Assembly: GCA_016432285.1 (NCBI GenBank)
Contig: CP066682.1
Span: forward strand, 81,026-115,961
DNA length: 34,936 bases
Direction of reading: 5' to 3'
DNA from: Candidatus Kaiserbacteria bacterium
GTDB taxonomy: Bacteria; Patescibacteriota; Minisyncoccia; Phycocordibacterales; UBA2100
The position numbers were made by a program, and so were the translations under genes. Below, piece by piece: positions 519-22,849 of the stretch. Position 1 is the stretch's first letter. Each line of letters starts with the position of its first letter. Under the pieces are notes generated by a model. The model searched no databases. It was not told the origin of the DNA and was given only the letters and a program-made list of their open reading frames with translations.

Positions 519-525
519 TGAGGCG

Positions 526-1380: not shown

Positions 1381-1386
1381 TACAAT
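1381..1386 (+). promoter_or_regulatory. -10-like TACAAT overlapping the track start ATG 1385; 7 nt before in-frame ATG 1394
   Basis: Read directly. This suggests the real PBP start is ATG 1394 (MWRKLKRLW...). Confidence 0.4.
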
Positions 1387-6780: not shown

Positions 6781-7106
6781 TGCCCCGAGCATTGAGTGTG
6801 CGGCGAAAAGACTTCCTCGCCCTCAAGGGCGCTCGCGGCCGGCGGGCGCACGGTCGTTACTTTTCGGTGCTCTCCTCTTCTCTTTCCGGGGAAACCCGCT
6901 ACGCATGTGTCGTTAGCAAGAAAATTGCTGCGCGGGCGGTGGATCGCAATCGCGTGCGCCGTATCTGGCGCGAAGCGCTGCGCGCTCACCAGAAAAGCCC
7001 ACCTGCGGGGCTGGCGCTCGTGTTCCATGCAAAGAAGGAAGCGATCGGCACGAGTCTGACGGAGATCTCACGCGACATCGCCGCGCTGATCGAGCGGGTC
7101 TCTTAA
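6780..7106 (+). CDS. rnpA: Ribonuclease P protein component
   Basis: 108 aa, basic, with motif VVSKKIAARAVDRNRVRRIWREAL. In conserved rpmH-rnpA coupling. Confidence 0.8.
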   Translation: MPRALSVRRKDFLALKGARGRRAHGRYFSVLSSSLSGETRYACVVSKKIAARAVDRNRVRRIWREALRAHQKSPPAGLALVFHAKKEAIGTSLTEISRDIAALIERVS

Positions 7107-7914: not shown

Positions 7915-8388
7915 ATGGAATCCTCCGAGGTCGTTCTCAAAAAATTGCTTGATGCGGCGGGCCTCCCGCACACTGGCATTGAGGTGAGCGAGCTCGCGGG
8001 GCAGACCGTTCTCTCGATTAAGGCAGATGACGCCCGTGCGCTCATCGGCTCGCACGGCGATACGATTCACGCGATCGATCACCTCGTGAAGAAAATCGTC
8101 GAAAAACAGCTGCCCCCGGCAGCGGAAGGGAGCGAGGAGACGCAGTCACCCCACTTTCTTGTCGACGTCAACGATTACCGCTCCAAACAAATCAAGGATT
8201 TGCAGAACAAGGCGCTCATGATGGCCGAGCGCGCGCGTAGCTTTCAGTACGACGTCGAGCTCTCCCCCATGAGCGCGTATGAGCGCCTCATCGTGCACAC
8301 GACCCTGCAAGACGCCCCCAATGTAAAAACGGAATCCCAAGGAGAGGGCCGCAATCGCCGCGTCGTCATCAAGTATTCAGCGGAGTGA
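7915..8388 (+). CDS. jag: Jag/KhpB-type RNA-binding protein (KH + R3H), lacking the Jag_N domain
   Basis: R3H-like SAYERLIVHTTLQD with GEGRNRRVVIKY at the C-terminus. Position after yidC. Confidence 0.75.
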   Translation: MESSEVVLKKLLDAAGLPHTGIEVSELAGQTVLSIKADDARALIGSHGDTIHAIDHLVKKIVEKQLPPAAEGSEETQSPHFLVDVNDYRSKQIKDLQNKALMMAERARSFQYDVELSPMSAYERLIVHTTLQDAPNVKTESQGEGRNRRVVIKYSAE

Positions 8389-8409: not shown

Positions 8410-8970
8410 TCAGTAGGTAATGCCGCTGTTGATGTCTTGACCCGGAGTCGTTTCTTCGAGCGGCCCGCCGAAGGAACTCTCCGTGGGAGGCGTGGACGCG
8501 CTCTGCTGTTGCGTGGAGCCGGGCGCGGGGCGCAGGACGTCGATCCGAAGCTTCAAGATGTCGGGATTGATCTGGTTAAGAATGATCCAGATGCCAAGGA
8601 GGAGGAAGAGGCCCAGAAACGTCTCCCTGATATCTTCCCTCGCCTTCTCCTTTTTGCTCCAGAGATCGCTCGACATGTACAGGAATCCCGCCCACGCGAG
8701 CCGGAGCACGGCGAGAATCGCACCCGCGGCGATGGCGGCAAAAAAGAGCCTGTTGAGGAAGGTGCCCAAGTCGGAGGTATTGTAGAGATCGTTGAGCCGC
8801 GTCGTGTCCTTAAATTCCGCGAGCGGCACGAATCCGTACGGAGTCGCTTGGCCATAGTAGGTGCTGTCCACATCCGGGCTCGCCGCCGCCGCGGGCGTGG
8901 CCGTAAGCAGCAGCGCAAACGCGAGGGTGAGTCCGCAAAACACGAGCGAAGTGTGGAGCGTTTTTTTCAT
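8410..8970 (-). CDS. T4SS pilin-like (TrbC/VirB2-type) exported protein; last gene of the T4SS-like operon
   Basis: Preferred start ATG 8970 (MKKTLHTSLVFCGLTLAFALLLTATPAAAASP, a signal peptide), 1 nt after the upstream stop. The C-terminal half has two hydrophobic helices joined by a charged loop (FFAAIAAGAILAVLRLAWAGFLY...KKEKAREDIRETFLGLFLLLGIWIIL), which is the VirB2/TrbC-like topology. Confidence 0.5.
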   Translation of the reverse strand: MKKTLHTSLVFCGLTLAFALLLTATPAAAASPDVDSTYYGQATPYGFVPLAEFKDTTRLNDLYNTSDLGTFLNRLFFAAIAAGAILAVLRLAWAGFLYMSSDLWSKKEKAREDIRETFLGLFLLLGIWIILNQINPDILKLRIDVLRPAPGSTQQQSASTPPTESSFGGPLEETTPGQDINSGITY

Positions 8971-8971
8971 A

Positions 8972-10174
8972 CTACTGCTCGGCGACGCGAAGCACCCAGA
9001 ACGATTTGTCGATGGCATTCATAAATGCAATGTATCTGCCCTGCTCGTCGATTTGTACATTCTCCACATCGAGCAGTATATCTCCCGGCCCGTACAAAAG
9101 TTCCGCGCTGCCGCCGCTCACATCAACCCGCCAGAAAGAATCCGCAGTGTGCGCCTGCCCGCGCGCACGAAGGTCGAGGTACAGGGCGCCAGTCGGCCGC
9201 TGCGGTACGCCGCAAAAGGCGATCAATTGTACGCTCGGCGACCAGACGCATTTATCGGCGGTGGTGCGCACGGGCAGCGTTACCTCCGAGGCGGAAGCAT
9301 CAACGCGTGCGGAAAGCGTGAGGCTCGTCTCCGACTCGCCGATGAGTATCGCTGCGGACGAGGCGCGCGGCAGCACCGTAAGCCCCACGCCGCGGGCGAG
9401 CGGCGTGAGCGAGCCTGTCTCGTCGAGCGTGTACGCATATCCTTCCACTCCGCTTCCTGGATTTTGTGCGAGCACGATGCGACCGTCGGAGAGGGAACGC
9501 ACCTGCCAGCCGCTTATGGCAGACGAAAAGACATTCTTCTCCCCTGTGCCGTCCCACTTGGCGCGCACGCCGACGGCACCCGACGCCGTTTCGGTGATGG
9601 CGAAAATTTCCGAACCTGCTGCGTTGAAGGTAATCGCGTGGACGTCGTCGGGGAGGCGGAACCCCACGAACTCCGACGAGCTTGCGGTGATCGTGGCGAC
9701 GCTTGTCTCCACGCGCTCGCCCACGGTCTTCTCTATTATTTTTCCGTCGCGTGAGACGCTCGCTTCGTACACGCGCGGAACGAGCGTATTGCTGACGCGC
9801 GCGAGCGCACCAGTTTCCGGCTCCACGTCAAACACGTATCCGGTGGAGCGCTCTACGAAACGGAGCTTCGTCGTACTCGCGAGAAAGCCGAAACCGGCAG
9901 TCGGCGATTTGTTGATCTGGTAGAGCCGCGGGGGCGTGGTCGTGCCTTTTTCCCGGTCGAACACCGAAGAAATCGTCGAGACGATGTTGTTGTATGTGCT
10001 CCCCACCGCATCTCCAAAGGAGGGCGCACCGACTCCCGCACCCCTTCCCTCAAGCGCAGTGTCGATCTCTTTTTGCTGCGCGCGCAGGAAGTAGAACCAC
10101 GAGGCGAACGCGAGGAGCGTGAGCGCGATCGCCGCGACTCCTATATATATGAACGTGCGTGTCGAGAACTTCAT
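8972..10174 (-). CDS. Membrane-anchored protein with a beta-rich repetitive ectodomain (TolB/beta-propeller-like is a guess), T4SS-like operon
   Basis: Preferred start ATG 10174 (MKFSTRTFIYIGVAAIALTLLAFASWFYFL, a TM anchor), 4 nt after the upstream stop. The remainder is rich in short beta-strand-like repeats. No family recognised. Confidence 0.55.
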   Translation of the reverse strand: MKFSTRTFIYIGVAAIALTLLAFASWFYFLRAQQKEIDTALEGRGAGVGAPSFGDAVGSTYNNIVSTISSVFDREKGTTTPPRLYQINKSPTAGFGFLASTTKLRFVERSTGYVFDVEPETGALARVSNTLVPRVYEASVSRDGKIIEKTVGERVETSVATITASSSEFVGFRLPDDVHAITFNAAGSEIFAITETASGAVGVRAKWDGTGEKNVFSSAISGWQVRSLSDGRIVLAQNPGSGVEGYAYTLDETGSLTPLARGVGLTVLPRASSAAILIGESETSLTLSARVDASASEVTLPVRTTADKCVWSPSVQLIAFCGVPQRPTGALYLDLRARGQAHTADSFWRVDVSGGSAELLYGPGDILLDVENVQIDEQGRYIAFMNAIDKSFWVLRVAEQ

Positions 10175-10178
10175 GGAT

Positions 10179-11207
10179 TTACTCTGAGCCGCCGAACGGA
10201 TCGTTGAAGGTGCCCGCTTCGCCACCCCGGAGCGACACACCCCAGAGGCCGGCAGCGCTCAGGAAGAGGTTTCTGAACGACGAGAGATCGAGATCGATGC
10301 GCGCAAGACCACTCGAATTGGATGCGTCGATCGTGATCTTGTTGCGGAGCTTCGGATCGACGGGGATCTGCTGCCCGTTGACCTTCCACGCATAGTCGAG
10401 CGAGCTTTCGCCCGCCGCAGCGGCATCGGCAAAATACGGCACGGCGACGAAGGTCGTTTGCGTCTCCGCGAGATTCGTCTGCGTACCGAGCGCCTCGTGA
10501 TACAGAACCCCAAAGAGCGGGTGCTCACGATAGAGCGCGAGTATCGGTTCGACTGACGGGAGGCGGAGCACTTTCCGGGCGATGAGCGTACCGTCAGTAC
10601 TGCGCGCCTCGACGGAAATCTGGTCGACGCCAAAGAGGGGCGGCGAGTCGATCACTGCGCGCGCCTTGCCGCGTCCCGACACTGATTTCAGCACGGTGTC
10701 GTTGCGCTTCCATGTGTAGATCGTATCGGCGCTCGGGACGAGCGAGCCGTCGGGACGCGCGAGGCGCGCGATCGCCTGGAGGCGCACCTGCGTCCCCGCA
10801 GAAGGAAGCGCGCGGCCGCGGAAGAAGGGTGGCACGTACGAATCCGATTCCCACAGAAGGTCGATTTCAGTCGGCCGCACGAATGCCATCGCGCTCGCCG
10901 ATGCGCCGCCGTCACTCGCAACGATCTCGATCTGCGTTTCCGATCCGAGCTTTCCTGCCTGTACCGTAATGCTCGTCGTATTGCGCGCGCGCTCGGCTCC
11001 GTCGACGTACCACACGACCTCCGCCGCATCGAGATCGAGCAGCGTCGAATAAGCGGTGATCCGCACACTCTCGCGCGGAGCAGGATACTGCGGGGAAAGC
11101 GAGAGCGAGAGATCGGCCACGTCAAACGCGTTCGGGAGGACGATCTGCGCGTGTGCAGAGCCGGCGTACAAAAAAACCGCGAACGCGAGGAGTGCGGTGC
11201 GTCTCAT
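10179..11207 (-). CDS. Exported protein, unknown family, T4SS-like operon
   Basis: Signal peptide MRRTALLAFAVFLYAGSAHAQ. The ATG overlaps the virB4 stop (ATGA at 11204-11207). Confidence 0.55.
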   Translation of the reverse strand: MRRTALLAFAVFLYAGSAHAQIVLPNAFDVADLSLSLSPQYPAPRESVRITAYSTLLDLDAAEVVWYVDGAERARNTTSITVQAGKLGSETQIEIVASDGGASASAMAFVRPTEIDLLWESDSYVPPFFRGRALPSAGTQVRLQAIARLARPDGSLVPSADTIYTWKRNDTVLKSVSGRGKARAVIDSPPLFGVDQISVEARSTDGTLIARKVLRLPSVEPILALYREHPLFGVLYHEALGTQTNLAETQTTFVAVPYFADAAAAGESSLDYAWKVNGQQIPVDPKLRNKITIDASNSSGLARIDLDLSSFRNLFLSAAGLWGVSLRGGEAGTFNDPFGGSE

Positions 11208-13186
11208 ACCTCCCGCAGCGCGCTGCTGTTGAGGGCGCTCGCACCCACCGGTGCCGTGTCTTCGCCCGGCTTGTGCGAAGCAGCGGTAATCGCAAGGCTC
11301 TCCGCGGTGCCCGGCATCATCGGGTTGGCGGAGGGCCGCGGGATGCCGGCCGGCGTATCTCCCGGAAGCTGGCTCTTATTTTCGAGATCTGCTTTCGCTT
11401 TCTTGATCGCGAGAATCTGCGAAGGGTCGGAGGTGATGATCTGGTCTTCGGTGTACGAGGCGATCACCTTGATCGCGACGTGCTTGAGGCCAGCGAAGAA
11501 GATGCCCTCCCCGACGTCGGATTCGAGCAGTAGATACTTTTCCTCATCGGAGAGCTTAAATGTTTGCTGAACGAGATCGACTGACGTAGGTGATTGCCGC
11601 AGGAGGATCTGGATTGAAGAGTTGGTGATCATCGGAATGCCATAGGGAGAGTTGAGGAAGTCGGAGACGTCCTGCGTGATCGTGGAGATGCCAAGAAAGT
11701 ATTTGCGGCCGCGCTTCGCGATGCCGAAGAGGAACGACGCCGTATCTTCCGAGCGCATCATCCACCACGCCTCGTCGATCACGAGCAGTCGCTTACGGAG
11801 CTCTTTGCGCACCGTGTTCCAGATGTGGTGCGTGATGATGTACATCGCGACCGGCTTCAGGTCGTCTTCCATGTCGCGCACCGAGAAGACCACAAGCTTT
11901 TTGTTCATGTCGACGTTGGTGGGGCGGTTCATGAAGCCCGACCACGTACCCTTGGTGTATTTGCTCAGTCTTTGCACGAGGGACTCTGATCCTTCCATGC
12001 CGGAGAGCACGAGCTCGAAGTCGGAAAGAAGCGGCGGCTCGACCGATGCGAAGTTGGCGTCGGAGGTGATGTCTTTGAGGGCGTAGGTTTCGGTGATCGC
12101 CTTGTCGATGATGGCGTCTTCTTCCGGGGTGAGTCCGCCGAGCATGATGCGGAAGAGCCCGACGAGCGTGATGATGTTGTTGCGGAGCACGTCGGAAGGA
12201 TTTTCGTCCTCGCGCGGAATGGGGAGATCGAACGGATTAATGTGGTGCTCGGAAGAAAGCGAGATGTTGAAGTAGCGTCCGCCCACAGTCTCCGCGAGAT
12301 ATTCGTATTCGCGCTCCGGGTCAATCACGATGACCTCGGTATCGAACATGAGCGAGCGCAGAATCTCCAGCTTGGTCGTGTACGACTTGCCAGCACCAGA
12401 TTTGGCGAAGGTGACGGAGTTGTAGTTTTCGAGAGAGAATCGATCGAAGAGGATCAGCGAGGAGTTGTGACGGTTGATGCCGTAGAGGATGCCGCGATCC
12501 GACGTGAGGTCGAAGGAGATGAAGGGGAAGATTGATGAGAGCGGCGCGGAGTTGAGCTTCGTGTGCACGTCGAGCTCGTCGGTCCCCAGCGGAAGCGTCG
12601 AGCGAAAGCCTTGTTCCTGCTGGAAGAGCGCCGGCCGGATATACACGAGGCGCGACTCGAGAATCGATCTCACCTCGCTCTCTACTTTGTCGATCTCCTC
12701 GCGCGTGTTGCCGTAGATCGTGAGGTAGAGGCCGACTTCGAAGATGCGCTCTTGCGCCTGCTGGAGCGAGTCGCGCAGCTTTTCGAGGTCGGAGTAGGCG
12801 GTGTCGAGCATCGGGTCGCGCACCATACCCTTTTGCTCGCGTGTCGAGATCTGGCTCTGCACCTCCGCCACTTTTTTCTGGAACTTGCGGAGCATCTCGT
12901 TGGTGTCCATGGGGTGCACGAAGATCGAGATGTCGAGCACTTTGTCCATGTTGATGATCGGCGCAAACCAGCCGGTCGTCAGAAAGCGCGGGTACGAGAT
13001 CACGAAGAAGGTGCGCGCGATGCGCTCACCGAGATCGAGCTCGCGCGAGTTGACCTTGAGAGCGTGCGGCGCGATCACATCTTGCAAATCCAGCACGCCG
13101 CCCTCGTAAATCTCTTCCGGGAGTACTGGCAGCACCTCGGCGACCGGCGCCTTCTTGCCAAACGGGAGTAAGTCTTTGAGCGCCAT
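11204..13186 (-). CDS. virB4: VirB4/TrbE/PrgJ-family type IV secretion ATPase
   Basis: 660 aa. Walker A AKSGAGKSYTTK, Walker B RLLVIDEAWWMM and RKYFLGISTITQDVSDF. The N-terminal CagE/TrbE/VirB-type region is FFVISYPRFLTTGWFAPII...DISIFVHPMD. Confidence 0.9.
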   Translation of the reverse strand: MALKDLLPFGKKAPVAEVLPVLPEEIYEGGVLDLQDVIAPHALKVNSRELDLGERIARTFFVISYPRFLTTGWFAPIINMDKVLDISIFVHPMDTNEMLRKFQKKVAEVQSQISTREQKGMVRDPMLDTAYSDLEKLRDSLQQAQERIFEVGLYLTIYGNTREEIDKVESEVRSILESRLVYIRPALFQQEQGFRSTLPLGTDELDVHTKLNSAPLSSIFPFISFDLTSDRGILYGINRHNSSLILFDRFSLENYNSVTFAKSGAGKSYTTKLEILRSLMFDTEVIVIDPEREYEYLAETVGGRYFNISLSSEHHINPFDLPIPREDENPSDVLRNNIITLVGLFRIMLGGLTPEEDAIIDKAITETYALKDITSDANFASVEPPLLSDFELVLSGMEGSESLVQRLSKYTKGTWSGFMNRPTNVDMNKKLVVFSVRDMEDDLKPVAMYIITHHIWNTVRKELRKRLLVIDEAWWMMRSEDTASFLFGIAKRGRKYFLGISTITQDVSDFLNSPYGIPMITNSSIQILLRQSPTSVDLVQQTFKLSDEEKYLLLESDVGEGIFFAGLKHVAIKVIASYTEDQIITSDPSQILAIKKAKADLENKSQLPGDTPAGIPRPSANPMMPGTAESLAITAASHKPGEDTAPVGASALNSSALREV

Positions 13187-13189
13187 ACG

Positions 13190-13864
13190 TTATTGCTGCG
13201 AAAGCGCTTCCACCGGCATGGGCTTCCCCTGCTCGCCGGGGTTGAACATCTTGTACATGAGCTCGATCGCTTCCTCGGTGCCGAGCTGTACGGTGCGCAC
13301 GCCGGTGCGGATGAGGCCCTGCTGCACGATCGAGATGCGCTGCTCGAGCTGGGAGACCTGCTCCTCGAATGTTTTGTTGGCCTCGGCCGCGGTCGCCTTC
13401 TTTCTGTTCCACGGGAGCATTGAAGCGGGGCCGCTTGCTGCGACGGGCGCGAGTGCAGCCGAATACGGAACGACGACGAAAAAGTTTTTAGTCATGATGT
13501 TGGCCGCTTCAGTGAAACTCTTGATGAACTCGATGTATTCGCGGATCTGGATCCGCATGAGGTCGTCGAGCTGCTCCTTATAGGCGGCTTCGAGCGTGGC
13601 GACGTAGGGGCGGATGTCGAGCATGCGTGACTGCACGAAGATTTGCACGGTGAAGTCGAGCGAGTTGAGAAAGTTTTGGAACTGCACGATAAACGCAGTT
13701 TGCTCGTCCTCGGATTTGAGGGCGAAGTTGATCGAGGAAGCGAGCAGGATCGCGCGCATGCTGCCGTCTTTCATGACGACAACACCGTCGCGCACCTCGC
13801 GGATCGGGACGAACTCCTGCGTCGACTTCTTGCGCGTGCGCGCGTTTTGGAGGCGGGGAGGCAT
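13190..13864 (-). CDS. Soluble protein resembling the N-terminal domain of monoderm VirB4 proteins; unknown family
   Basis: 224 aa, stop-start coupled to both neighbours. STQEFVPIREVRDGVVVMKDGSMRAILLASSINFALKSEDEQTAFIVQFQNFLNSLDFTVQIFVQS parallels the entry segment of the adjacent VirB4. No Walker motifs. Confidence 0.5.
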   Translation of the reverse strand: MPPRLQNARTRKKSTQEFVPIREVRDGVVVMKDGSMRAILLASSINFALKSEDEQTAFIVQFQNFLNSLDFTVQIFVQSRMLDIRPYVATLEAAYKEQLDDLMRIQIREYIEFIKSFTEAANIMTKNFFVVVPYSAALAPVAASGPASMLPWNRKKATAAEANKTFEEQVSQLEQRISIVQQGLIRTGVRTVQLGTEEAIELMYKMFNPGEQGKPMPVEALSQQ

Positions 13865-13865
13865 A

Positions 13866-14390
13866 TTAGCTGAAGCGCTGCTGCTGGAGCGAGCGGTGCA
13901 CGAGGGCCTCCTGCGCGGTGCGGATCGGCATGATCACTCCCGCTTCCGCGCGGCGCTCGTTCTCGCTCGCAACTCCCGCCGCGATGCGCTCCTTGATGTC
14001 GAGGCTCCATGCGAGCTCGTGGAGCTTGCTGTCGGAGAGTTTTGGCACGTACACCGAGGCATCGCTCCCCGGCTCGGCGTGCGCGGCCACCGCCTTCTTG
14101 ACGCTTCCCTTCTGCGCGTTGTTCCACAGGTAGAGCTTGGAGCGCAACATATAGAAAAAAGCGTTTTCGAGCGCGACGATAAAGGGCCTACCGTTCCACT
14201 GCATGAAAGCGAGCGCCGCCGCGAGGCCGCCGACGCCCGCGATGAGGGGGCCCGCAAGCACGAGCGGGAGCGCACGCCACAAAAGGTATGCCGCGCCGAC
14301 TCCGCCGATCACGTAGACGAACTGTTTGAAGGTCAGCGGACCGAAAATTTTGTCCTCAACCTCGATGAACTGAGGAACCTGAAACTGCAT
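13866..14390 (-). CDS. prgI: PrgI family (VirB3-like) small membrane protein
   Basis: Preferred start ATG 14390: MQFQVPQFIEVEDKIFGPLTFKQFVYVIGGVGAAYLLW, followed by a second TM. This N-terminal pattern is the PrgI-family signature. Located immediately upstream of the VirB4 module, as in Gram-positive T4SS. Confidence 0.65.
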   Translation of the reverse strand: MQFQVPQFIEVEDKIFGPLTFKQFVYVIGGVGAAYLLWRALPLVLAGPLIAGVGGLAAALAFMQWNGRPFIVALENAFFYMLRSKLYLWNNAQKGSVKKAVAAHAEPGSDASVYVPKLSDSKLHELAWSLDIKERIAAGVASENERRAEAGVIMPIRTAQEALVHRSLQQQRFS

Positions 14391-14397
14391 ACACAAA

Positions 14398-15126
14398 TTA
14401 TATCAGCGCGGGAGCGTCCTCCTTTGCGAAAATTAGCGACTGGCTGCGCATCGGCGTCTCTTGCTCGTTCTTCAGCCAATCAGTAACAAACGATTCGAAG
14501 GACGTATGCGATGACCAGTATCCAGGTAGTGCGTCCATCGATACGATCGCCTTCTCCGGGCGGTCGATACCGAGGTAGTCGGGATAGCTTGACCATCGGA
14601 ATGATTGCAAGAACTCTTTGGCTGCTCGGAGATCACCGATACCCTCGGTTTTCCATGTCGGACGGATGAGCTGCACCGGATTGAGGTGAACGTAGGCTAT
14701 CAGGTAGGCGAGGTAGGTATCGGAATCCGCATGGATCGCCTTGTACTTACCCTGGAAAAGAGCACCCGACCGCTCGTATCTTGTATTGAAGTACATGGTG
14801 TATCCGGTCGAGATTTTTTGCATAAATTTCGCGACATCGCCCTCCTCGCTGCTTCGCACAATAAGATGAAAATGATTCGGCATAAGGGCGTAGGCGCACA
14901 CGTCGACTTTCTTTTCAACTGCTTTTTTCTCCTTATTTAGAGCCAAAAACTGGTACAAGGTCGAACCTTGTAATTTGAGGTCGACTGGCTTGCTGCCGTT
15001 GCAAGCATAGAGCAGCGCAAGAAAGCGCTCGTAATCCTTGGTGGACATGAAAATCGTCCTCTTTTCCGTGCCGCGGTTGTAGATATGGTAGAACTCGCCG
15101 GGCGCGATCTGCTCTCTTCTTCCCAT
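14398..15126 (-). CDS. IS200-like HUH/Y1 transposase (REP-associated tyrosine transposase-like)
   Basis: GEFYHIYNRGTEKRTIF, HUH motif MPNHFHLIV, and catalytic-Tyr region IAYVHLNPVQ. GC is visibly lower (about 50%) than in the flanking operon genes. Confidence 0.8.
   Translation of the reverse strand: MGRREQIAPGEFYHIYNRGTEKRTIFMSTKDYERFLALLYACNGSKPVDLKLQGSTLYQFLALNKEKKAVEKKVDVCAYALMPNHFHLIVRSSEEGDVAKFMQKISTGYTMYFNTRYERSGALFQGKYKAIHADSDTYLAYLIAYVHLNPVQLIRPTWKTEGIGDLRAAKEFLQSFRWSSYPDYLGIDRPEKAIVSMDALPGYWSSHTSFESFVTDWLKNEQETPMRSQSLIFAKEDAPALI
14954..14972. repeat. REP-like hairpin copy 1 (TACAAGGT-CGA-ACCTTGTA), inside the transposase CDS
   Basis: Perfect 8-bp stem with a 3-nt loop. The 25-nt identity CTGGTACAAGGTCGAACCTTGTAAT (14950-14974) is shared with copy 3. 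Looser similarity extends over 14937-14974 vs 15190-15227. Confidence 0.85.
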
Positions 15127-15132
15127 CCACCC

Positions 15133-15138
15133 ATCTTA
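15133..15138 (-). promoter_or_regulatory. -10-like TAAGAT, 6 nt before the transposase ATG 15126, overlapping the foot of hairpin copy 2
   Basis: The reverse strand reads CCTTGTAAGATGGGTGGATG. The first two bases of TAAGAT are the last two of the hairpin. Confidence 0.4.
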
Positions 15139-15155
15139 CAAGGTCGAACCTTGTA
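15137..15155. repeat. REP-like hairpin copy 2
   Basis: The same 19-nt TACAAGGTCGAACCTTGTA, with different flanks (CT..GATTT). Confidence 0.85.
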
Positions 15156-15206
15156 GATTTTGGGAAAATGGCCGCCCTGTGGATAAGCTTTTAAGCCATA
15201 TCCTGG

Positions 15207-15225
15207 TACAAGGTCGAACCTTGTA
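15207..15225. repeat. REP-like hairpin copy 3
   Basis: The same 19-nt core. The 25-nt identity to copy 1 spans 15203-15227. It sits directly after the stop of the 222-aa gene. Confidence 0.85.
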
Positions 15226-15226
15226 A

Positions 15227-15895
15227 TCAGGCGGGGGGTTCGCGGTAAGGGTCGTCGTGAACGTCGGTGCGAGTGGTGGAGGGCTCGCCGTGCTTGTACG
15301 CGCCGGAAGACGGCAGCGGGCGGGCAGCTTTTTCTGTCGGCGCTGGCGCGGGCGGGGTGGCGGGAGCGACCGGGGGCGCAGCCGGAGCCGAATCGAGCTT
15401 CGGGGGCGTGGGCTCGGCTGGGGTTGCGGTGATCGGTGCGGGAGTCGCGGTTGCCGGGGGTGTTGCCGGGGGTGCGGCAGGTACCACGCTTTCTTCGGAG
15501 GCCGAAAGAATCTGCCGCCGCGCCGCCTCCTCGCCGCTTACCTCCTCCGCTTTTGCCTCCGGGTGTTCCAACTGCCGCTCAAGCTCCTCGCGGATTGGCT
15601 CAAATACCTCTTTCGAAATATCGCCAGCGAGCGCGGCAGCCGTTTTTTCGTCGACGCCCACTTCTCGTCCGATATTTGCTTGGAGTTCGTTGATTTCCGA
15701 GAAGCCCAGCAGCGTGAGCATTACCTCGTTTTCGAGTCGCTCCCACTGGTCGAGGTGCAGCTTGTGCGTGTCGGCCATCTTGCGGAGTAAGTTTTCAACG
15801 TCGGCGGACTCGATCGCGTCGCGAACGACTTTCGGAAGCTCCTTGAGTCGCTCCGCTATTTTCTTGTCGAGGTCCTCGTCAAAAATTGGAGTCAT
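15227..15895 (-). CDS. Acidic helical N-domain + Pro/Ala/Thr-rich tail protein, no TM, unknown family (T4SS-like operon)
   Basis: 222 aa, coupled to the upstream stop (15898). The C-terminal half, PAAPPATPPATATPAPITATPAEPTPP...APATPPAPAP, ends in DDPYREPPA. Confidence 0.55.
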   Translation of the reverse strand: MTPIFDEDLDKKIAERLKELPKVVRDAIESADVENLLRKMADTHKLHLDQWERLENEVMLTLLGFSEINELQANIGREVGVDEKTAAALAGDISKEVFEPIREELERQLEHPEAKAEEVSGEEAARRQILSASEESVVPAAPPATPPATATPAPITATPAEPTPPKLDSAPAAPPVAPATPPAPAPTEKAARPLPSSGAYKHGEPSTTRTDVHDDPYREPPA

Positions 15896-15897
15896 AT

Positions 15898-18393
15898 TTA
15901 ATGGTCGTCATCTACCTCTTCGTCGACTGCTCGTGGATTTTCTGAGCGCAGCTGGGTGAGCGCGGCTCGCAGGCGGCTTGTCCCAATCCTACCCCGCGCT
16001 TTGCCGCGCACTTCTCCCGCGATGTGTTTTCCCTCGCCGGTTACCGTGTAAAAGACGCCGGCCGATTTTTTTCCTATGTACTCTGCCGCACCCTCGATAC
16101 CGCGTTGCTTCGATGCGACTTTGTTCTTACCCGCTTCGTTCGCTAGATTTTCCGTCTCCTTGTCGAATGCGTTGAGATTGCTTGTGGCGCTGCTGAGTTT
16201 TTGCTCCGCTTCTGTGAGATTTTTTTTCAGGTAATCAACCGTTTTTTGCGCTGATTGCACTTTCCTGTCCTCAGCCGCCTCCTGCGTCTTGCCTTCCTGC
16301 ACATGTGTATCAATCTGGCGCAATATGTCCGTGCGCTCCTCCTCTGTCCGCGCTTGCGAGAGATTTGCTTGCAGCGGCAAAATTCTTTCCTGCGTCGTTC
16401 TCCGGAGGGCCTGCTTGGCCCTTTCGGCTTCTGTTTGCATCCTCATCAGTTCCCTGCGTGCGGATGCCATCTGTCCGCCTTCGTCACGTTCGGCGCGTGC
16501 TTTCTCGGCCTCGTGTTCCGCTTTTGCGGATTCGTACGCGCGGCGGCGTTGCTGGCCCTCCTCGCTTGCTGAGCGCTCGCGGTATGTTTGCTGGCGTGCC
16601 TCGTCTTCGGTTTTCCTTCTTTCTGAAGGAGAGACGTCGAGTGCCTTGGATCGCTCTTCGCCCAACTTGATCCGCTCTTCGATTCCGTGCATGTAACCAG
16701 CTGCGGTACCCTTCGGTCGCTGACCCGCCGCGAGAGCAGAGAGTCCGATCGTTTTGGCAACTGACTTCGCCGTGTCCGAGTCGGCGATGTTGAAGCCCGA
16801 TTCCGCAATGTTTTTGGCTCGGCCTGCCCACAGCGCGTAACTGCCGGCGCGTTTTTCAAATTCTGAAGCTTCCTTCCTTTTAGCTTCCGCCTGCTCGATT
16901 CGGCCCGCCTTCTCGTCTCTAAGCGCTAATGTTCGTAGCTCACCCGCACGGCTTCGCTGTGCTTTGCCATCACTCAGCAGGGATTCACGTATTCCGTACG
17001 CCGCTCTCCCCGCTGTCTGGCGCATGACAGGTGCCACCCCGAATCTCCATGCGAGGCCCGGTGCGGCGAAGGCACCGTACTTGGCAAGACCTCGCAGCGC
17101 GGTCGAAACACCGCCGAATCCACTGATTGATGTCGCGAGATTGTTGGCGGCGTAGAAGGAGCCGTAGAGGAGCCCGAGAATGACGACGTACGCGAGCAGC
17201 GCTTCAAGATTCAGCGGCTGGGTTGGATTTGAAATCAAGGAGCCGAGCGTACCGCTTTTCGTGTTGACGCTGACCGCATCGGCGATGACGAGCGTGGCCC
17301 AGAGGAGTCCCATGAGTATCGGAGCGAGAAATGCGCTCTTCAGGAGCGACTTCCACCACGTGGTCCAACCAATATCGATTGTGTGGTGCGGTATGAGCCA
17401 GCTCGCAAAGGCCAGCGCTGAAGTGAGCATGATAAATACGAGCAACACGGCGCGCGTAACGAGAATGTAACACCCGTACAGCAGGACAAGCGCCGCGGCG
17501 GTGAAGAGTGTAGCCGTCACGAGGCCGAAGAGGAGCGCTGTCCAACCGCTCGCTGTTGCGTAGTTGTCCTCGCGGATGCCGAAGGACGCCGTCTTGAGTG
17601 CTTCGTACGTTTTGCCAACACCCTCGAGGCCGGCGAATTTTATGAATTGGCCGGCGATCCCCTTTTGCGAAAAGTCCCCCGTGAATTCGACACCATTCTG
17701 CCCTGCCCCCGAGCTCGTCGAGTAGAGCTCGCTCGCCTTGTAGAACTGCATGGCAACGAAGTTCGACGTGTCGATGATCACCTTGCTGAAAAGGAGGCTG
17801 AAATTGAGGAGCACGGCCACGATGAGGATGCGCGCGATCATTTTCTTCTCGCCGAAATCCTTTACTCCGAGGATGATGTTGATCGCGATAAAGACGAACA
17901 TGCCGATGATCACGATGTTGGCGATGTCGCGTATCGCACTCCAACCGATGTCGATCCCCTCGCGCACACCGGGCGTGAAAAGCGCACCGAATTGTATGAT
18001 TGTATGGTCGACTAAAAAGTTGAAGAATAGAGCCGCCACGGCAAGAAGCCATGCCGACATCGCGATCAGGGCAGATCCGATAAGCACGCTCAGCGTCCGT
18101 CCCCAACAGACGACATCGAATAGGCTCCAATACGAATCACATGTGGACGGCTGCTTCGCGTAATCCTTTGCAGCGTATGAGCCAGGCGGCCGACACGAAC
18201 CGCTGCCGACGTTGCCCGTGTCACTCACATCCGCGGGTGTCCACTCACCACCGGCGCTGGTGCACGCTTCTTGTGTCGTGGCCGCCCCTATCGCTGCCGC
18301 GTCTGGGGTCTTCTGCGCATGTGTGGTGAGGGGCGTCGCAGAGGTCCCGAGGATCAGGAGCATGAGCGAGAGCGCGAGAGCGGTTCGTTTCAT
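15898..18393 (-). CDS. Polytopic membrane protein, VirB6/TrbL-like, with a long charged coiled-coil C-terminal tail
   Basis: Preferred start ATG 18393 (MKRTALALSLMLLILGTSATPLTTHAQ, a signal peptide). About 8 or more hydrophobic helices in the first ~470 aa. The last ~350 aa are K/E/R/A/Q-rich (AEAKRKEASEFEKRAG...AEHEAEKARAERDEGG...). Confidence 0.5.
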   Translation of the reverse strand: MKRTALALSLMLLILGTSATPLTTHAQKTPDAAAIGAATTQEACTSAGGEWTPADVSDTGNVGSGSCRPPGSYAAKDYAKQPSTCDSYWSLFDVVCWGRTLSVLIGSALIAMSAWLLAVAALFFNFLVDHTIIQFGALFTPGVREGIDIGWSAIRDIANIVIIGMFVFIAINIILGVKDFGEKKMIARILIVAVLLNFSLLFSKVIIDTSNFVAMQFYKASELYSTSSGAGQNGVEFTGDFSQKGIAGQFIKFAGLEGVGKTYEALKTASFGIREDNYATASGWTALLFGLVTATLFTAAALVLLYGCYILVTRAVLLVFIMLTSALAFASWLIPHHTIDIGWTTWWKSLLKSAFLAPILMGLLWATLVIADAVSVNTKSGTLGSLISNPTQPLNLEALLAYVVILGLLYGSFYAANNLATSISGFGGVSTALRGLAKYGAFAAPGLAWRFGVAPVMRQTAGRAAYGIRESLLSDGKAQRSRAGELRTLALRDEKAGRIEQAEAKRKEASEFEKRAGSYALWAGRAKNIAESGFNIADSDTAKSVAKTIGLSALAAGQRPKGTAAGYMHGIEERIKLGEERSKALDVSPSERRKTEDEARQQTYRERSASEEGQQRRRAYESAKAEHEAEKARAERDEGGQMASARRELMRMQTEAERAKQALRRTTQERILPLQANLSQARTEEERTDILRQIDTHVQEGKTQEAAEDRKVQSAQKTVDYLKKNLTEAEQKLSSATSNLNAFDKETENLANEAGKNKVASKQRGIEGAAEYIGKKSAGVFYTVTGEGKHIAGEVRGKARGRIGTSRLRAALTQLRSENPRAVDEEVDDDH

Positions 18394-18394
18394 A

Positions 18395-20086
18395 TTATTT
18401 CTTCCAGCGCTCCGCCCACTGGCGGATGACATCGGGGTTGTTGACGTTGCACCAGCCGACGTTCGGGTCCGAAGAGTCGCCCCACGCCTTTGCGGTGTCC
18501 GTCTTCAGCGTGTTCATCGCTTCGTCGACGTCTTTCTTTTGCTCGCCCGCGCGCTGCGCGTCGTACTGCGTGTGCAGCAGCTTTTGGGCGACGAGTGAGT
18601 CGAGCTGCTGGAGCGCGAGCCGCTGCGCGTTCAGCGAGGCGGTGTTGGTCACGCTTGCGATGAGCTGCTCCACGAGCTGCACCGCTTTCTGCGCGGTCTT
18701 CACGTTTTCCTCCGCAATCTCGGAGAGCGACTTGATCTGCGAGTCGATCACCTGCTGCGAAAAGGCGAGCGTGCTCGTGGACGTGCGGATTTTCGTCTCG
18801 CTCAACTGGAACGGCACGCAGGTTTCCAAGGGCGGATTCGTCGTGGTGTCGGTGGAGCACTCGCCTTTGGCGGCGTACGCGCGCGCTTTCGGCTCGATCA
18901 GGGCCCAACATGCTTTCTCGGTGTTCTTAAGATCTGTCCCAGTTTGCGTGAGCTTCGTGGCGATGCCGTTGGTCGAGGCGAGGTAACTACCTTCCACCTC
19001 ACGCGATTTGTTGAGGATCGAGAGCGCGGCATTGACCGCCGCACCCACGACTCCCTGCGAAGACTCTTTGGCCACCTGGTCGAGGTACGACGGCTGCCCG
19101 CCGATGCTCTGGCGGAAACCAGCGAGACCGCGCGTGTCGCTCAAGGCCTGCGTCGTTACGCCCGAAAAGAGCGCGCCGATCATCTGCCCGATGTCGTTGG
19201 CGCTTTCAAGCTGGCGCACCGACGAGCCCAGGATTTGCTGGAACGATTCTTGTACGACCGAAGCAGGTGTCAGCACGTCATCTGAGAGCGGATCCGCTTC
19301 GTTGTTGGTGACCGGGTAGAAACCACGTCCCCAGTCCCACATCATGCGTGCGTACTCCCGCGACTGCGCGTTGCGCGACTCCGCGAGGTTGTCGAATCCG
19401 GCGGCGGTGAACACAGGGTTGCATCCGAAGGGGTTGGTTTGTGCAAGGATCGCCCCGATCACGTCGTCGCTTTTATTTTCGAGCGATTTCTCGATGTCCT
19501 TGAACGCGCACGAAAGGATGGATTCGGGCTGGCGAGAGCGTGTCTGGTATGCGCGCGCTGCGTACTTCTGGATCTCTTTGCGGAACGCAGGGACGAGCGC
19601 ATCGAGCGTGCCGTCGGTAAGAATCGAGTATTCGGATTTGTCGGAAATCGTGCGGAGCTCTTCGAGCGGATCCACCACGTATCGCTTGTTACCGTCTCTC
19701 CCGGTCTCCACGCTCTCGACGTTGCGCTTCAAGAGCGCCGACGCGGCGTTCTCGCGAAGGCGCACCTGCAAGGGCCGGAGCACGCATTCCTTGTAGGTGA
19801 TGATGCCCGTGTTGAGCGTAATCGCCGCGTCGTTGACGGGCACGTACACGCCGCCGATCGCCGCCTGCGTGCCGGCACTCATGTTGACGCCGCCGATCGT
19901 GTTGCATCCGAAGATGCCTTCGTTTTGAAACTGATACTTTGCGGCCTCCGAGGGAGGCGTCTCTTCCGTATTCTCGGTAGTCTGCGTTTCGGCATTTTCT
20001 TCCTGCGCTGCGACGAACGAGAGAGATCCGAAAAGAATCGCCAGGAGCAGCGCGAGGATCGACAGGTTTTTTGCGACCGATGTCAT
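18395..20086 (-). CDS. Exported 563-aa protein, Cys-containing, helical C-terminus, unknown family (T4SS-like operon)
   Basis: Signal peptide MTSVAKNLSILALLLAILFGSLSFVAAQ. ATGA overlap with the upstream gene at 20083-20086. Confidence 0.55.
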   Translation of the reverse strand: MTSVAKNLSILALLLAILFGSLSFVAAQEENAETQTTENTEETPPSEAAKYQFQNEGIFGCNTIGGVNMSAGTQAAIGGVYVPVNDAAITLNTGIITYKECVLRPLQVRLRENAASALLKRNVESVETGRDGNKRYVVDPLEELRTISDKSEYSILTDGTLDALVPAFRKEIQKYAARAYQTRSRQPESILSCAFKDIEKSLENKSDDVIGAILAQTNPFGCNPVFTAAGFDNLAESRNAQSREYARMMWDWGRGFYPVTNNEADPLSDDVLTPASVVQESFQQILGSSVRQLESANDIGQMIGALFSGVTTQALSDTRGLAGFRQSIGGQPSYLDQVAKESSQGVVGAAVNAALSILNKSREVEGSYLASTNGIATKLTQTGTDLKNTEKACWALIEPKARAYAAKGECSTDTTTNPPLETCVPFQLSETKIRTSTSTLAFSQQVIDSQIKSLSEIAEENVKTAQKAVQLVEQLIASVTNTASLNAQRLALQQLDSLVAQKLLHTQYDAQRAGEQKKDVDEAMNTLKTDTAKAWGDSSDPNVGWCNVNNPDVIRQWAERWKK

Positions 20087-20892
20087 GGTTTCTTTTGCTG
20101 CTGGTATTTCACGAGCGCGTCGAAGGCACTAAAAAGGCGCGTCTCGGCTTCGGTGTATGCGGTGATCAAGGCGGCGTTGGCGTACGGGTCGTCGACGTGT
20201 TCAGTCATGCTACCCACCACCGCGCCAAACTCCGAAAGAGAATTGAGCATGCCGATCTGCACGCTGACCGCATCAGCGGGCACGACGATCTTGGCGGCGC
20301 TCTTCACCGCAGCCTCGTAGTTGGCGGCGCTCTTTTGGAGCGCGGTCGCGTATTCGCTCCCGCCCGAATCGATTAGATTCGCGAATACCTTCAGCTCGTA
20401 CCCCTGATTTTGCATCAAGGGCTCGAGCGCGATCCGGAGGTCGTCGCGGTATTTCAGCATCCGCTCAAACGAGAGGTCTGCGTCGGTCGTGAGGTCGCTC
20501 GCGCGGAAGGTTTGGTACGACACTTTCGCCTGGAGCGTTGATCCAATGTCGGCACCGATCTCCTCGCCCGCGTCGACGCTGTAGGACCCGCTCTCTTGGA
20601 GCACCGCATACGATCCGAGGAGGGCGGAGAGGACGTTTTCGCCGATGTTGGAGATGCCGTCAGGGTCCGCGGACGCTGCCTCAGCCCCGAGGGCCGCCTG
20701 CCAATCGATCGAGCTAAAGGGGCTCTTGGCGGCCGTCTCAATCTGAAGCGGATTCGAGGCGCTCACCGTGTTGCCTCTCCCGAAGAGCGAGGCCACTTGC
20801 CAGCCGACGATGCCAAGGAGAGCGATCACCGAAAGAGCAGCAACGAAGGCCATGTGCGAAAAGGCCACGCTCCCCTGCGCGCTGTCTTGCAT
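20083..20892 (-). CDS. Single-pass membrane-anchored protein, unknown family (paralog-like to the 292-aa neighbour)
   Basis: TM AFVAALSVIALLGIVGWQVASLF. Own -10-like box upstream. Confidence 0.55.
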   Translation of the reverse strand: MQDSAQGSVAFSHMAFVAALSVIALLGIVGWQVASLFGRGNTVSASNPLQIETAAKSPFSSIDWQAALGAEAASADPDGISNIGENVLSALLGSYAVLQESGSYSVDAGEEIGADIGSTLQAKVSYQTFRASDLTTDADLSFERMLKYRDDLRIALEPLMQNQGYELKVFANLIDSGGSEYATALQKSAANYEAAVKSAAKIVVPADAVSVQIGMLNSLSEFGAVVGSMTEHVDDPYANAALITAYTEAETRLFSAFDALVKYQQQKKP

Positions 20893-20899
20893 TGCTTAA

Positions 20900-20905
20900 A
20901 GTATA
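20900..20905 (-). promoter_or_regulatory. -10-like TATACT, 7 nt before ATG 20892 (internal operon promoter)
   Basis: The reverse strand reads GGTTATACTTTAAGCAATG. Confidence 0.4.
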
Positions 20906-20959
20906 ACCGCCAAAGTGGATAACGCGGGGAAAAACAGGGGGACAAGCGGTGGGTATCCG

Positions 20960-21838
20960 CTAGAACGACGGGCTCGAGGAGAAGAGAAACACGCTTCCCG
21001 GTTCGTCCGACCTGAAGGTGACTCCCGAGATAGAAAAGAGGGTCGCGAGCGCGACGTAATTCTTGATAAAGGTCTCCACGCCGGTGTTGTATGCGAGCAT
21101 CGCCTTGAGCAGCTCATCGTCATTGGCGGCATTCGGGATCTGCGAGAGCTTGAGGCCGATCTCGATGTAGCTTTCGGCGAGATTTTTGTTGGCGCTTGCG
21201 GCCTGTGAGGGCACGAACTCGATCGCCCGGAGCGCGCGGCCCACACCGGAGAGCGAGGAGGCGAGCTCGACGAGGCGTCCGCGCTTTTCTTCGTCGTCGC
21301 GATCCTCAAACTGATCCTTGAGGACCTGCGGCATGTTGCGGTGCGTGTCTTCGAAGCTCTGGATCAGGGATCCGGCTTCGTTGCCGTACTCATAGAGCGC
21401 GCTTTGAGAAGCGGTGCGCGGCTTTTGGCTTTCCGTTTCGATACTGATCAGCGCCTTCGGTATGAATTCGTACGCGTCGAGGAGCGCCTCGCTCCCTCCG
21501 CCCGTAACTGCGGCCTTGCCAGCCTGTGCGAGTTCCTCAAGGAACGACTCGAACGCCGCGTTGGTGACGTCTTCGGCTGAGGCGTCGTTGCTGGAAACCG
21601 GCTGCCAGTTGAAGGGCGCTCCCTGCCGTACGCTCGTGTAGATATTTTGCGTATCGCTGCTCGTCTGCGCCCCAGCGCCGGAGAGTGGATTGAGGAGCGA
21701 ACCTCCGCCGCCCCAGGCACGAAGTCCCGAATCTCCTGAAACCGCCGAGCGATTGACCACGATGAGGAATCCGACAGCCAAGAGCAGCACCGTCGCGATG
21801 ATCGCGACGACGTACGGGTGCGAGCGAATCCACTGCAT
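20960..21838 (-). CDS. Single-pass membrane-anchored protein, unknown family; first gene of the T4SS-like operon
   Basis: TM YVVAIIATVLLLAVGFLIVV. 292 aa. Confidence 0.55.
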   Translation of the reverse strand: MQWIRSHPYVVAIIATVLLLAVGFLIVVNRSAVSGDSGLRAWGGGGSLLNPLSGAGAQTSSDTQNIYTSVRQGAPFNWQPVSSNDASAEDVTNAAFESFLEELAQAGKAAVTGGGSEALLDAYEFIPKALISIETESQKPRTASQSALYEYGNEAGSLIQSFEDTHRNMPQVLKDQFEDRDDEEKRGRLVELASSLSGVGRALRAIEFVPSQAASANKNLAESYIEIGLKLSQIPNAANDDELLKAMLAYNTGVETFIKNYVALATLFSISGVTFRSDEPGSVFLFSSSPSF

Positions 21839-21850: not shown

Positions 21851-21913
21851 CCGTCTCGCCTCTCGCTCAGCAATCGTGTGCGCTGCGCTTCAGGAGCGCG
21901 CCCGCACTCCTGC

Positions 21914-21919
21914 TACAAT
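21914..21919 (+). promoter_or_regulatory. -10-like TACAAT, 6 nt before GTG 21926
   Basis: Read directly. Divergent from the T4SS-operon promoter within an 87-bp intergenic region. Confidence 0.4.
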
Positions 21920-21925
21920 AGAATC

Positions 21926-22849
21926 GTGAAAAAGATGCTTGCTGCTCTTGGTGCGCTCCTCGCGCTACTCCCGCTCACCGCCTCCGCATTTCCCTTCGGC
22001 GGGCGCGCGTCGACCGTGCTCGACTGCGTGTACAACTCGACCATTTACGTCAACCTTGGACCTCCGCGCGGGGGCGAATACATTTGGACAACGGGAACGA
22101 AGACGTATCAGTTCGGTCCTCCCCGCTCCTCCGGCCAGTGGATCCTGGGGCTTGCGGCGCCACCATACTATTGCATCTACAAAATCAGCCCGCTCACGAT
22201 CTACACCGGCATCGCGATCACCATGATGGGCTCGAGCGGCTCGGCGGCGCCGCCCGCACCTCCCACGGCGACTGGTCAGCAAATCAAAACGGTCGCACTC
22301 CCCTCCGGCGGCTCGGCGGTACCCTCTTCGGGCACACAAAGTGGCTCTTCCGGCTCGACCTCGATCGGTCGCGTGGTGATCAGCGAGGTGTACTACAACG
22401 TGGATTTGGATCACGGCTCCAAGCCGCAAGGTGAATGGGTAGAGCTCTACAACGGCTCGTCCGCCACGGTGAATCTCTCGGGATGGACGATCCGCGACTC
22501 CGCACTTTTCGACGCGCTCCCTGGGGGCACCATGCTTGCGCCGGGGTCCTTCCTCGTCGTGGGCGCGATATCGGCGACGCGCGCCTCGTGGGAGGTCCCG
22601 AGCGCGCAGTTCGTCTCGATCGAAAGCCCGATCGGCGACGGCCTTTCGAATACGGGCGACTCGCTCACGCTCCGCAACGCGGATGGCGCGGCCGTCGACG
22701 CCGTGTCGTGGGGATCCAACTCTTCGGCCTTCAATCCTGCGGCCGCTTCGGTCCCGTATGGCTCCTCGCTCGCCCGGAGCACGCTCACGAAGGACACCAA
22801 CACCGCGAACGACTGGATCTCGCGCGGCACGCCGACTCCCGGCAAGTGA
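21926..22849 (+). CDS. Exported lamin-tail-domain (LTD) protein
   Basis: Preferred start GTG 21926 (VKKMLAALGALLALLPLTASA, a signal peptide); ATG 21935 is the alternative. The C-terminal LTD signature is VVISEVYYNV...GEWVELYNGSSATVNLSGWTIRD...GDSLTLRNADGAAVDAVSWG. Confidence 0.75.
   Translation: MKKMLAALGALLALLPLTASAFPFGGRASTVLDCVYNSTIYVNLGPPRGGEYIWTTGTKTYQFGPPRSSGQWILGLAAPPYYCIYKISPLTIYTGIAITMMGSSGSAAPPAPPTATGQQIKTVALPSGGSAVPSSGTQSGSSGSTSIGRVVISEVYYNVDLDHGSKPQGEWVELYNGSSATVNLSGWTIRDSALFDALPGGTMLAPGSFLVVGAISATRASWEVPSAQFVSIESPIGDGLSNTGDSLTLRNADGAAVDAVSWGSNSSAFNPAAASVPYGSSLARSTLTKDTNTANDWISRGTPTPGK

Follow-up and report, generated by a model that had tools for sequence, protein, structure and literature searches.

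The T4SS locus and its recognizable core

The 34,936-nucleotide stretch analyzed here (the window), taken from Candidatus Kaiserbacteria contig CP066682.1 (assembly GCA_016432285.1, positions 81,026 to 115,961), contains a locus of 12 minus-strand open reading frames (ORFs) that encodes the core of a type IV secretion system (T4SS) together with a set of partner proteins that match no family. The ORFs are all co-directional, run from position 21838 down to 8410, and lie between jag on the left and a gene for a secreted lamin tail domain (LTD) protein, ksgA, and uvrD on the right (Table 1). A first-pass annotation, made by a model from the sequence alone, had described this arrangement, and the ORF coordinates agree with it, including 4-nt ATGA overlaps at 20083-20086 and 11204-11207. 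Gaps of 1 to 7 nt, which it gave for the remaining junctions, are found at most of them provided that internal ATG start codons are taken for the VirB6-like gene (18393), prgI (14390), the 400-aa gene (10174), and the pilin gene (8970), the last two of which are also the starts called independently on a public contig of identical sequence; the junctions between the 292-aa and 269-aa genes (67 nt) and between the 222-aa and 242-aa genes (100 nt) are wider. The operon had also been placed about 2 kb from the rpmH-rnpA-yidC-jag cluster, but jag is only 21 nt from its end, and rpmH and dnaA are ~1.6 to 2 kb away. The window has a GC content of about 60% and is without tRNA genes. The GC content of the operon (0.54 to 0.63) equals that of its flanks, matching the core genes on either side as had been stated.

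Pfam and NCBIfam models were run on all 12 products, and the motifs KSGAGKS, LLVIDEAWWMM, and MQFQVPQFIEVEDKIFGPLTFKQF were confirmed in the translations. The 660-aa ATPase matches the NCBIfam VirB4 model of the CD1110 family (1.8e-109; 367 bits versus a cut-off of 325; model positions 185 to 733) and the Pfam families P-loop_TraG (1.3e-24), AAA_10, and DUF87. It has more than 8,000 homologues, the best 120 of which share 86 to 96% identity and come from many assemblies; every named relative among these 120 is assigned to the Kaiserbacteria, Paceibacterota, or Patescibacteria. The VirB4 was placed in a clade on the basis of the family model and the named homologues. The 224-aa ORF, which is separated from virB4 by 3 nt, is TrsD-like and also matches the N-terminal ~120 to 230 positions of the VirB4_plasma and CD1110 VirB4 models. 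Because it matches both TrsD and the VirB4 N-terminal region, VirB4 is split into two ORFs at this locus. This product had been counted among seven that could not be placed in any family; the other six remain without a family match.

The small two-helix membrane protein matches PrgI (PF12666) at 2.7e-9 (37.9 bits versus a cut-off of 27), and the last gene of the operon encodes a protein that matches T4SS_pilin (PF18895) at 9.3e-7 (29.3 bits versus a cut-off of 26.6). The pilin has a signal peptide followed by two hydrophobic helices, has a length of 186 aa in the independent gene call, and is the only copy in the window. The polytopic protein g04 has a signal peptide, about six to seven transmembrane (TM) segments according to a TM heuristic, and a long, charged coiled-coil C-terminal tail. 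The g04 sequence of the window has no direct Pfam match, and a profile search against PDB sequences returned only compositional and coiled-coil matches; 9 of 37 syntenic g04 orthologues match TrbL/VirB6 (PF04610; best, 6.5e-7). Thus, the original assignments of the ATPase to VirB4, of the small protein to PrgI/VirB3, and of the pilin are borne out by NCBIfam and Pfam models above their cut-offs, and that of the VirB6-like protein is supported by way of its orthologues.

One genome per GTDB species was scanned, which yielded 579 confirmed loci; 80 of these were kept, from the Kaiser-, Nomura-, Taylor-, Campbell-, Adler-, Wolfe-, and Zambryskii-bacteria and others. In almost all 80 loci, tblastn recovered the order uvrD-ksgA-(LTD)-g01-g02-g03-VirB6-g05-PrgI-TrsD-VirB4-g10-g11-pilin-jag-yidC-dnaA-dnaN wherever the contig reaches. 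The TrsD-like protein was matched in 78 loci (median identity, 61%) and PrgI in 77. Accessory genes were counted with profile hidden Markov models (HMMs) built from orthologue alignments, only in loci with enough flank, and were found in 55 of 56 loci for g02, 56 of 56 for g03, 59 of 59 for g04, 67 of 68 for g05, 78 of 78 for g10, and 65 of 65 for g11. The unannotated partners are therefore as strictly kept in position as the recognizable core (55/56 to 78/78 loci). Because this synteny holds in nearly all 80 species loci, the locus is a vertically inherited, chromosomally fixed core operon of Paceibacteria and not an integrative and conjugative element (ICE).

As had been reported, no relaxase, type IV coupling protein (T4CP), or VirB11 was detected in the 35 kb by Pfam scans of selected large window ORFs; phmmer with VirB4 against all six-frame window ORFs found no second VirB4-like ATPase, and no second FtsK-like ATPase was found among the window ORFs. 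Public contigs that overlap both window ends extended the view by ~5 kb to the left, where ruvB, yebC, and ruvC are encoded, and by ~10 kb to the right, into a phage-like block. A relaxase and T4CP just outside the window would have spoken for an ordinary ICE in the earlier analysis, and neither is encoded in these flanks. No long direct repeats bracket the operon. The statement on the lack of an integrase or GC shift needs qualifying: serine recombinases and a drop in GC content do occur in the window, at ~31000, but they are 9 kb from the operon and do not bound it. The operon resides in a non-mobile, nonconjugative context.

Table 1. Features of the T4SS operon and its surroundings, in window coordinates
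Feature	Position	Strand	Basis
Operon
g01, 292 aa, bitopic, N-terminal TM segment and helical ectodomain	20960..21838	-	TM heuristic
g02, 269 aa, N-terminal TM anchor and extracytoplasmic four-helix bundle	20083..20892	-	AF2 model
g03, 563 aa, secreted, Cys-containing, elongated all-alpha protein	18395..20086	-	Signal peptide, AF2 model
g04, extended VirB6/TrbL-like polytopic protein, ~831 aa from ATG 18393	15898..18393 (844-aa ORF to 18432)	-	Topology, orthologues
g05, 222 aa, cytoplasmic (no TM segment)	15227..15895	-	Topology, orthologue alignment
Y1 (IS200-like/RAYT-like) HUH transposase, 242 aa	14398..15126	-	Pfam, NCBIfam
PrgI/VirB3-like protein, two TM segments, 174 aa from ATG 14390 (ORF, 176 aa)	13866..14390	-	PF12666
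TrsD-like protein, 224 aa, VirB4 N-terminal domain as separate ORF	13190..13864	-	NCBIfam TrsD, 1.8e-7
VirB4-family ATPase, central and C-terminal ATPase domains, 660 aa	11204..13186	-	NCBIfam, Pfam
g10, 342 aa, secreted, three internal Ig-like beta-sandwich repeats (weak)	10179..11207	-	Signal peptide, repeats
g11, 400 aa, N-terminal TM segment and TolB/PD40-like beta-propeller ectodomain (weak)	8972..10174	-	Profile search
VirB2-type T4SS pilin, 186 aa from ATG 8970 (ORF, 202 aa)	8410..8970	-	PF18895
Perfect hairpin ACAAGGT-TCG-ACCTTGT, three copies	14955-14971, 15138-15154, 15208-15224	-	3 versus 0.01 expected
Surroundings
ruvC	887-1360	+	Pfam
Class A penicillin-binding protein	1385-3784	+	Pfam
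dnaN	3787-4878	-	Pfam
dnaA	5098-6444	-	Pfam
rpmH	6647-6780		Read directly from sequence
rnpA	6780-7106	+	Pfam
yidC	7153-7872	+	Pfam
jag	7915-8388	+	Pfam
Secreted LTD protein	21878-22849	+	PF00932, 1.7e-19
ksgA	22851-23630	-	Pfam
uvrD	23632-25533	-	Pfam
Large serine recombinase, 587 aa	31280-33043
Second resolvase	33051-33497
Rep_O/HTH-like protein	33807-34520

Partner proteins and an inserted transposase gene

Six partners (g01, g02, g03, g05, g10, and g11) match no Pfam or NCBIfam model, and most have neither a family nor a fold match, in keeping with the initial view that the partner set is uncharacterized. Profile searches of g01, g02, g03, and g05 against PDB sequences gave compositional or coiled-coil matches only, and no VirB8-like or VirB1-like protein was recognized by Pfam or NCBIfam among the operon products.

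The first two genes, g01 and g02, are distant paralogues whose C-terminal ~92 residues align with a probability of 86.6% in hhalign (E value, 4.5e-6). As a distinct gene, g01 occurs only in about 18 close relatives, and its profile re-matches the g02 orthologue in 22 of 40 loci. The AlphaFold2 (AF2) model of g02 has a predicted local distance difference test (pLDDT) score of 67 overall and of 80 to 95 over residues 130 to 265; the underlying multiple sequence alignment held just 9 sequences, few relatives having been retrieved by the word-indexed search. Foldseek searches with this model returned generic four-helix-bundle sensor domains only (TMt 0.6 to 0.69, E > 0.1) and no VirB5-like or VirB8-like match. 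The idea that g01 and g02 are VirB5-like is unsupported by this search.

The secreted protein g03 was modeled with a pLDDT of 78 and has helices at residues 333 to 406, 440 to 480, and 506 to 536; its cysteines are conserved. Foldseek searches of the g03 model against PDB and BFVD gave best E values of 0.29 and 0.049, respectively, with none at or below 0.001; tape-measure proteins and generic coiled coils headed these nonsignificant matches. The g03 core is covered by no Pfam or NCBIfam model. In a few orthologues, g03 is extended by fn3, Ig, or cupredoxin domains, as would fit a protein exposed at the surface. This is a large family, with 3,034 clusters at 50% identity at E <= 1e-3, 1,792 of them at <= 1e-10, and defining it as a new family and solving a structure would be worthwhile.

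In the cytoplasmic protein g05, a conserved helical domain at the N terminus is followed by a linker rich in Pro and Ala and by a C-terminal DPYRE motif that is invariant, the alignment showing no variation at D214, P215, Y216, and E218; g05 has no match among PDB sequences or in Pfam. In g10, the consensus contains the motif W..NG....G.G three times, and its orthologues weakly match BiPBP_C (11 of 35) and Ig_3 (6 of 35); a profile search against PDB sequences matched Ig domains at an E value of 0.013. The g11 profile matches 12 TolB chains at E values of 1e-3 to 1e-2, and PD40 was weakly matched by 5 of 36 orthologues.

The 12 ORFs had been treated as a single T4SS operon, which holds for all but the 242-aa ORF. 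This ORF encodes a Y1 transposase (Pfam Y1_Tnp, 1e-9; NCBIfam REP_Tyr_transpos, 1.3e-10, which is below the cut-off of that model). A Y1 gene was found in the same slot in 3 of the 80 related loci (L005, L014, and L018), or in 4 of 81 when the window is counted, and no Y1 remnants were found in the 400- to 500-nt spacers at this slot in other loci. The Y1 gene is a lineage-specific insertion and not a T4SS component. Three perfect copies of a hairpin (stem given as 8 bp) accompany it; two lie upstream of the Y1 ORF, and the third is in frame inside it, ~55 codons from the start. The exact hairpin of the window is absent from the related loci; L005, L014, and L018 each have a palindrome of their own, with another sequence, upstream of Y1, and in L005 and L018 it also occurs inside the ORF. 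This pattern suggests that the palindromes associated with Y1 are a conserved structure with co-varying sequence. That the HUH nuclease and its hairpins might stand in for a relaxase in the rare lineages that carry them is far less likely than the import module considered further below.

The only perfect match of the window to the DnaA-box consensus, TTATCCACA, is located at 15178-15186 (minus strand), between the hairpins upstream of the Y1 gene. Matches with up to one mismatch number 8, versus 2.7 expected, and are scattered, and a clustering scan was not informative. The position of the perfect box inside the operon is probably due to chance.

Affinities and probable function of the system

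The system to which this locus belongs, and its interpretation, have already been published (2023 to 2025). VirB4 was reported in 2,417 of 3,035 Patescibacteria genomes, mostly in a monophyletic clade nested in MPF-FATA, with TrsD, PrgI/VirB3, VirB6, and VirB2-like pilins encoded near virB4 (Quinonero-Coronel et al. 2025, Microb Genom, PMC12102498). In that survey, relaxases were nearly absent (109 homologues in 103 genomes, 15 of them near virB4), VirD4-like T4CPs were frequent (5,713 homologues in 2,918 of 3,035 genomes) but rarely adjacent (148 near virB4), and the virB4 neighbors in Paceibacteria were dnaA, dnaN, rnpA, rpmH, and ksgA (PMC12102498). The authors concluded that the system was repurposed, possibly for the import of macromolecules (PMC12102498). 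The window has the same components (VirB4 with a separate TrsD, PrgI/VirB3, VirB6, and a VirB2-like pilin), the same lack of an adjacent relaxase or T4CP, and the same chromosomal setting, and interspersed unannotated genes appear in gray in the published synteny figure. Nothing essential differs. In the window, a Y1 insertion additionally separates the 222-aa gene from prgI, the pilin gene is single and not part of an array, and no VirB1 homologue is encoded in the operon. We consider the identity of the system almost certain, and the locus is very probably a Patescibacteria-clade T4SS of the type typical of Paceibacteria, a fixed derivative of monoderm MPF-FATA conjugation machinery. What is added here is the recognition of the 224-aa product as the VirB4 N-terminal domain, that of the 242-aa ORF as a Y1 insertion, and the conservation of the partners across the class.

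Comparison with other systems places the locus further. The MPF-FATA systems of CTn2 (CD1110), pCF10, and pGO1 share with it a VirB4 that scores above the CD1110 cut-off, the gene order VirB6-like, PrgI, (TrsD), VirB4 (as in prgH-prgI-prgJ and trsC-trsD-trsE), and a monoderm architecture without VirB7, VirB9, or VirB10. Unlike them, the window locus has no recognized relaxase, T4CP, VirB1-type hydrolase, VirB8/PrgL-like protein, or PrgB-type adhesin. It also differs from Gram-positive systems in having a VirB2-type pilin and in being fixed in the core chromosome rather than mobile. The T4SS of Southlakia epibionticum ML1 is likewise origin proximal, chromosomal, similar to Gram-positive conjugative systems, and pilin encoding; it belongs to the class Saccharimonadia and differs in having six divergent pilins and in the peptidase and lysozyme genes downstream of virB4. 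In that organism, SEML1_0006-0019, pilins included, are essential for epibiotic growth and lack a recognizable relaxase or coupling protein (Wang et al. 2023, Cell, PMC10633639). Bordetella Ptl, Brucella VirB, ComB, and Ced are T4SS cores without a relaxase that were repurposed for protein export or DNA import, and Ptl and Brucella VirB also lack an adjacent coupling protein; Ptl, Brucella VirB, and ComB are of the diderm MPF-T type, Ced is archaeal, and only their VirB4 is related to the window system.

Synteny, the Patescibacteria homologues, the 859-kb size of the source contig, and the absence of a relaxase and T4CP from the window and its flanks all agree with the first-pass reading of a domesticated, nonconjugative, T4SS-derived machine in a reduced-genome organism. 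In the mechanism that we propose, TrsD/VirB4 would dock on PrgI and the VirB6-like protein at the cytoplasmic membrane and would power the extraction of VirB2-like pilins and their polymerization into a pilus or tube. The structures that cross the wall and touch the host would be formed by g10, g11, g01/g02, and g03, partners that may replace what VirB8, VirB1, and adhesins supply in conjugative monoderm systems. Such a machine could serve an episymbiotic life through host attachment and contact-dependent exchange. It seems reasonably probable that the operon builds a pilus used for host contact. A 2025 review described the Patescibacteria systems as a distinct newcomer among T4SSs that may build a pilus conduit (PMC12857230), and a 2026 preprint on cultivated Microgenomatia reported uptake of host RNA and, where parasite and host meet, tubular structures that may be T4SS pili (bioRxiv 10.64898/2026.06.21.733656). 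Among the possible functions, we rank import of nucleic acid or other macromolecules from the host as the most likely, although we put it forward only tentatively.

Alternative hypotheses differ in what, if anything, the machine transports. The best VirB4 model is that of the CTn2 CD1110 conjugal-transfer family, an HUH (Y1) nuclease gene lies inside the operon, and a serine-recombinase element with a GC shift is located 9 kb away, all of which could indicate an ordinary or decaying MPF-FATA ICE with its relaxase, T4CP, and integrase outside the operon. However, the same slot and gene order recur in essentially all 80 species loci, the GC content of the operon equals that of core genes, the recombinase element is separate, inserted in comM, and devoid of a relaxase or T4CP, and only 4 of 81 loci carry the Y1 gene. 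The ICE hypothesis is largely refuted by synteny and flank content, and we give it almost no credence. Uptake of DNA by a competence-like T4SS, similar to archaeal Ced or Helicobacter ComB, is also improbable: import of DNA or other macromolecules has been proposed (PMC12102498) and VirB4 does match the CedB model, but with 34.8 bits versus a cut-off of 700 and over the P-loop region only, and other Ced or ComB families had no match in Pfam/NCBIfam scans. Furthermore, competence in S. epibionticum needs comEC, which is dispensable there while the T4SS is essential, and Pfam scans detected no ComEC or DprA genes at the locus.

Delivery of effector proteins, for example toxins or factors that manipulate the host, into or onto the host cell without a dedicated T4CP, as in Ptl and Brucella VirB, is a more serious contender, if still an unlikely one. 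T4SSs that secrete proteins without a T4CP exist (PMC12102498, PMC12857230), Wang et al. suggest that the Se T4SS "may instead export proteins" (PMC10633639), and the signal peptides of g03 and g10 would fit secretion by Sec and then by the T4SS, as for pertussis toxin. Against export, the locus yielded no candidates for effector or immunity genes, and the operon members are conserved and structural looking in every relative, unlike variable cargo. A machine for adhesion or pilus biogenesis only, with no substrate translocation, would account for the VirB2-type pilin, for the presence of VirB4, the ATPase behind pilus biogenesis in known systems (PMC12102498), and for surface-type partners with Ig-like, propeller, or helical domains. 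Type IV pili already serve adhesion in Patescibacteria, though, and the essentiality of the system in S. epibionticum together with the conservation of VirB4 (noted above for the best 120 homologues) suggests a more central role, so that we hold adhesion alone to be rather doubtful.

Several points weigh against our preferred reading of a repurposed Patescibacteria-clade T4SS that contacts the host and imports macromolecules. To our knowledge, there has been no experiment on any Paceibacteria T4SS. The predicted VirB6 identity of g04 is transitive, by way of its orthologues, and the Ig-like (g10) and propeller (g11) calls are weak, at E values of 1e-2 to 1e-4. No VirB8-like (NTF2) or VirB1-like fold was recognized in the two modeled partners, g02 and g03, both of which are helical. 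The inspected sequence comprises 35 kb plus ~15 kb of an 859-kb genome, and the literature reports distal VirD4-like genes to be common in the phylum. Because VirD4-like T4CPs occur elsewhere in most Patescibacteria genomes, the lack of a coupling protein refers to the neighborhood of the operon.

We speculate, without considering it likely, that g01/g02, g03, g05, g10, and g11 make up an extracellular, wall-spanning module that is specific to Paceibacteria and unmatched in any characterized T4SS; together with the pilus, this module would turn the VirB4/VirB6 core into a conduit for importing host macromolecules such as RNA. Patescibacteria account for a large share of bacterial diversity and are host dependent, and the origin-proximal T4SS belongs to the small number of machines for which an essential role in epibiotic life has been demonstrated (in Saccharibacteria) and is a leading candidate for how these bacteria acquire host material. 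The window offers a clean and complete Paceibacteria example of it rather than a new kind of system, and it is the conserved partners that still merit experiments and structural study.

Neighboring genes and a low-GC element

The LTD gene diverges from the first T4SS gene, g01. It was matched by tblastn in 21 of the 80 loci, and most of these matches, mainly in the closest relatives, lie between ksgA and g01. The LTD protein may be a co-regulated surface protein. About 4 kb upstream of the operon, at 25866-26960 (plus strand), the window encodes a secreted protein that combines two LysM domains with a Peptidase_M23 domain and is a candidate wall-remodeling partner, or stand-in for a VirB1-type hydrolase, encoded outside the operon. 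The ORFs at 28946-30358 (minus strand, 470 aa) and 277-885 (plus strand, 202 aa) had no Pfam match at E <= 0.001. A scan for promoter and terminator consensus sequences was uninformative in this high-GC, nonmodel organism.

A low-GC (42%, versus 60%) phage-like element in comM occupies 30380-34936, 9 kb from the operon, and runs past the window end. The remnant of comM (Mg-chelatase/ComM) at 30380-30958 is the C-terminal half only, and at ~31000 the GC content falls from 63% to 43% within 100 nt. A connection between its serine recombinases and the T4SS was considered and rejected, as the element is a separate insertion. On the overlapping contig, it continues with an Amidase_3 gene, a pair of cI/cro-like helix-turn-helix (HTH) genes, two DNA methyltransferase genes, and a gene for a Cap15-like protein, and we regard the element as a candidate prophage of a Patescibacteria host.

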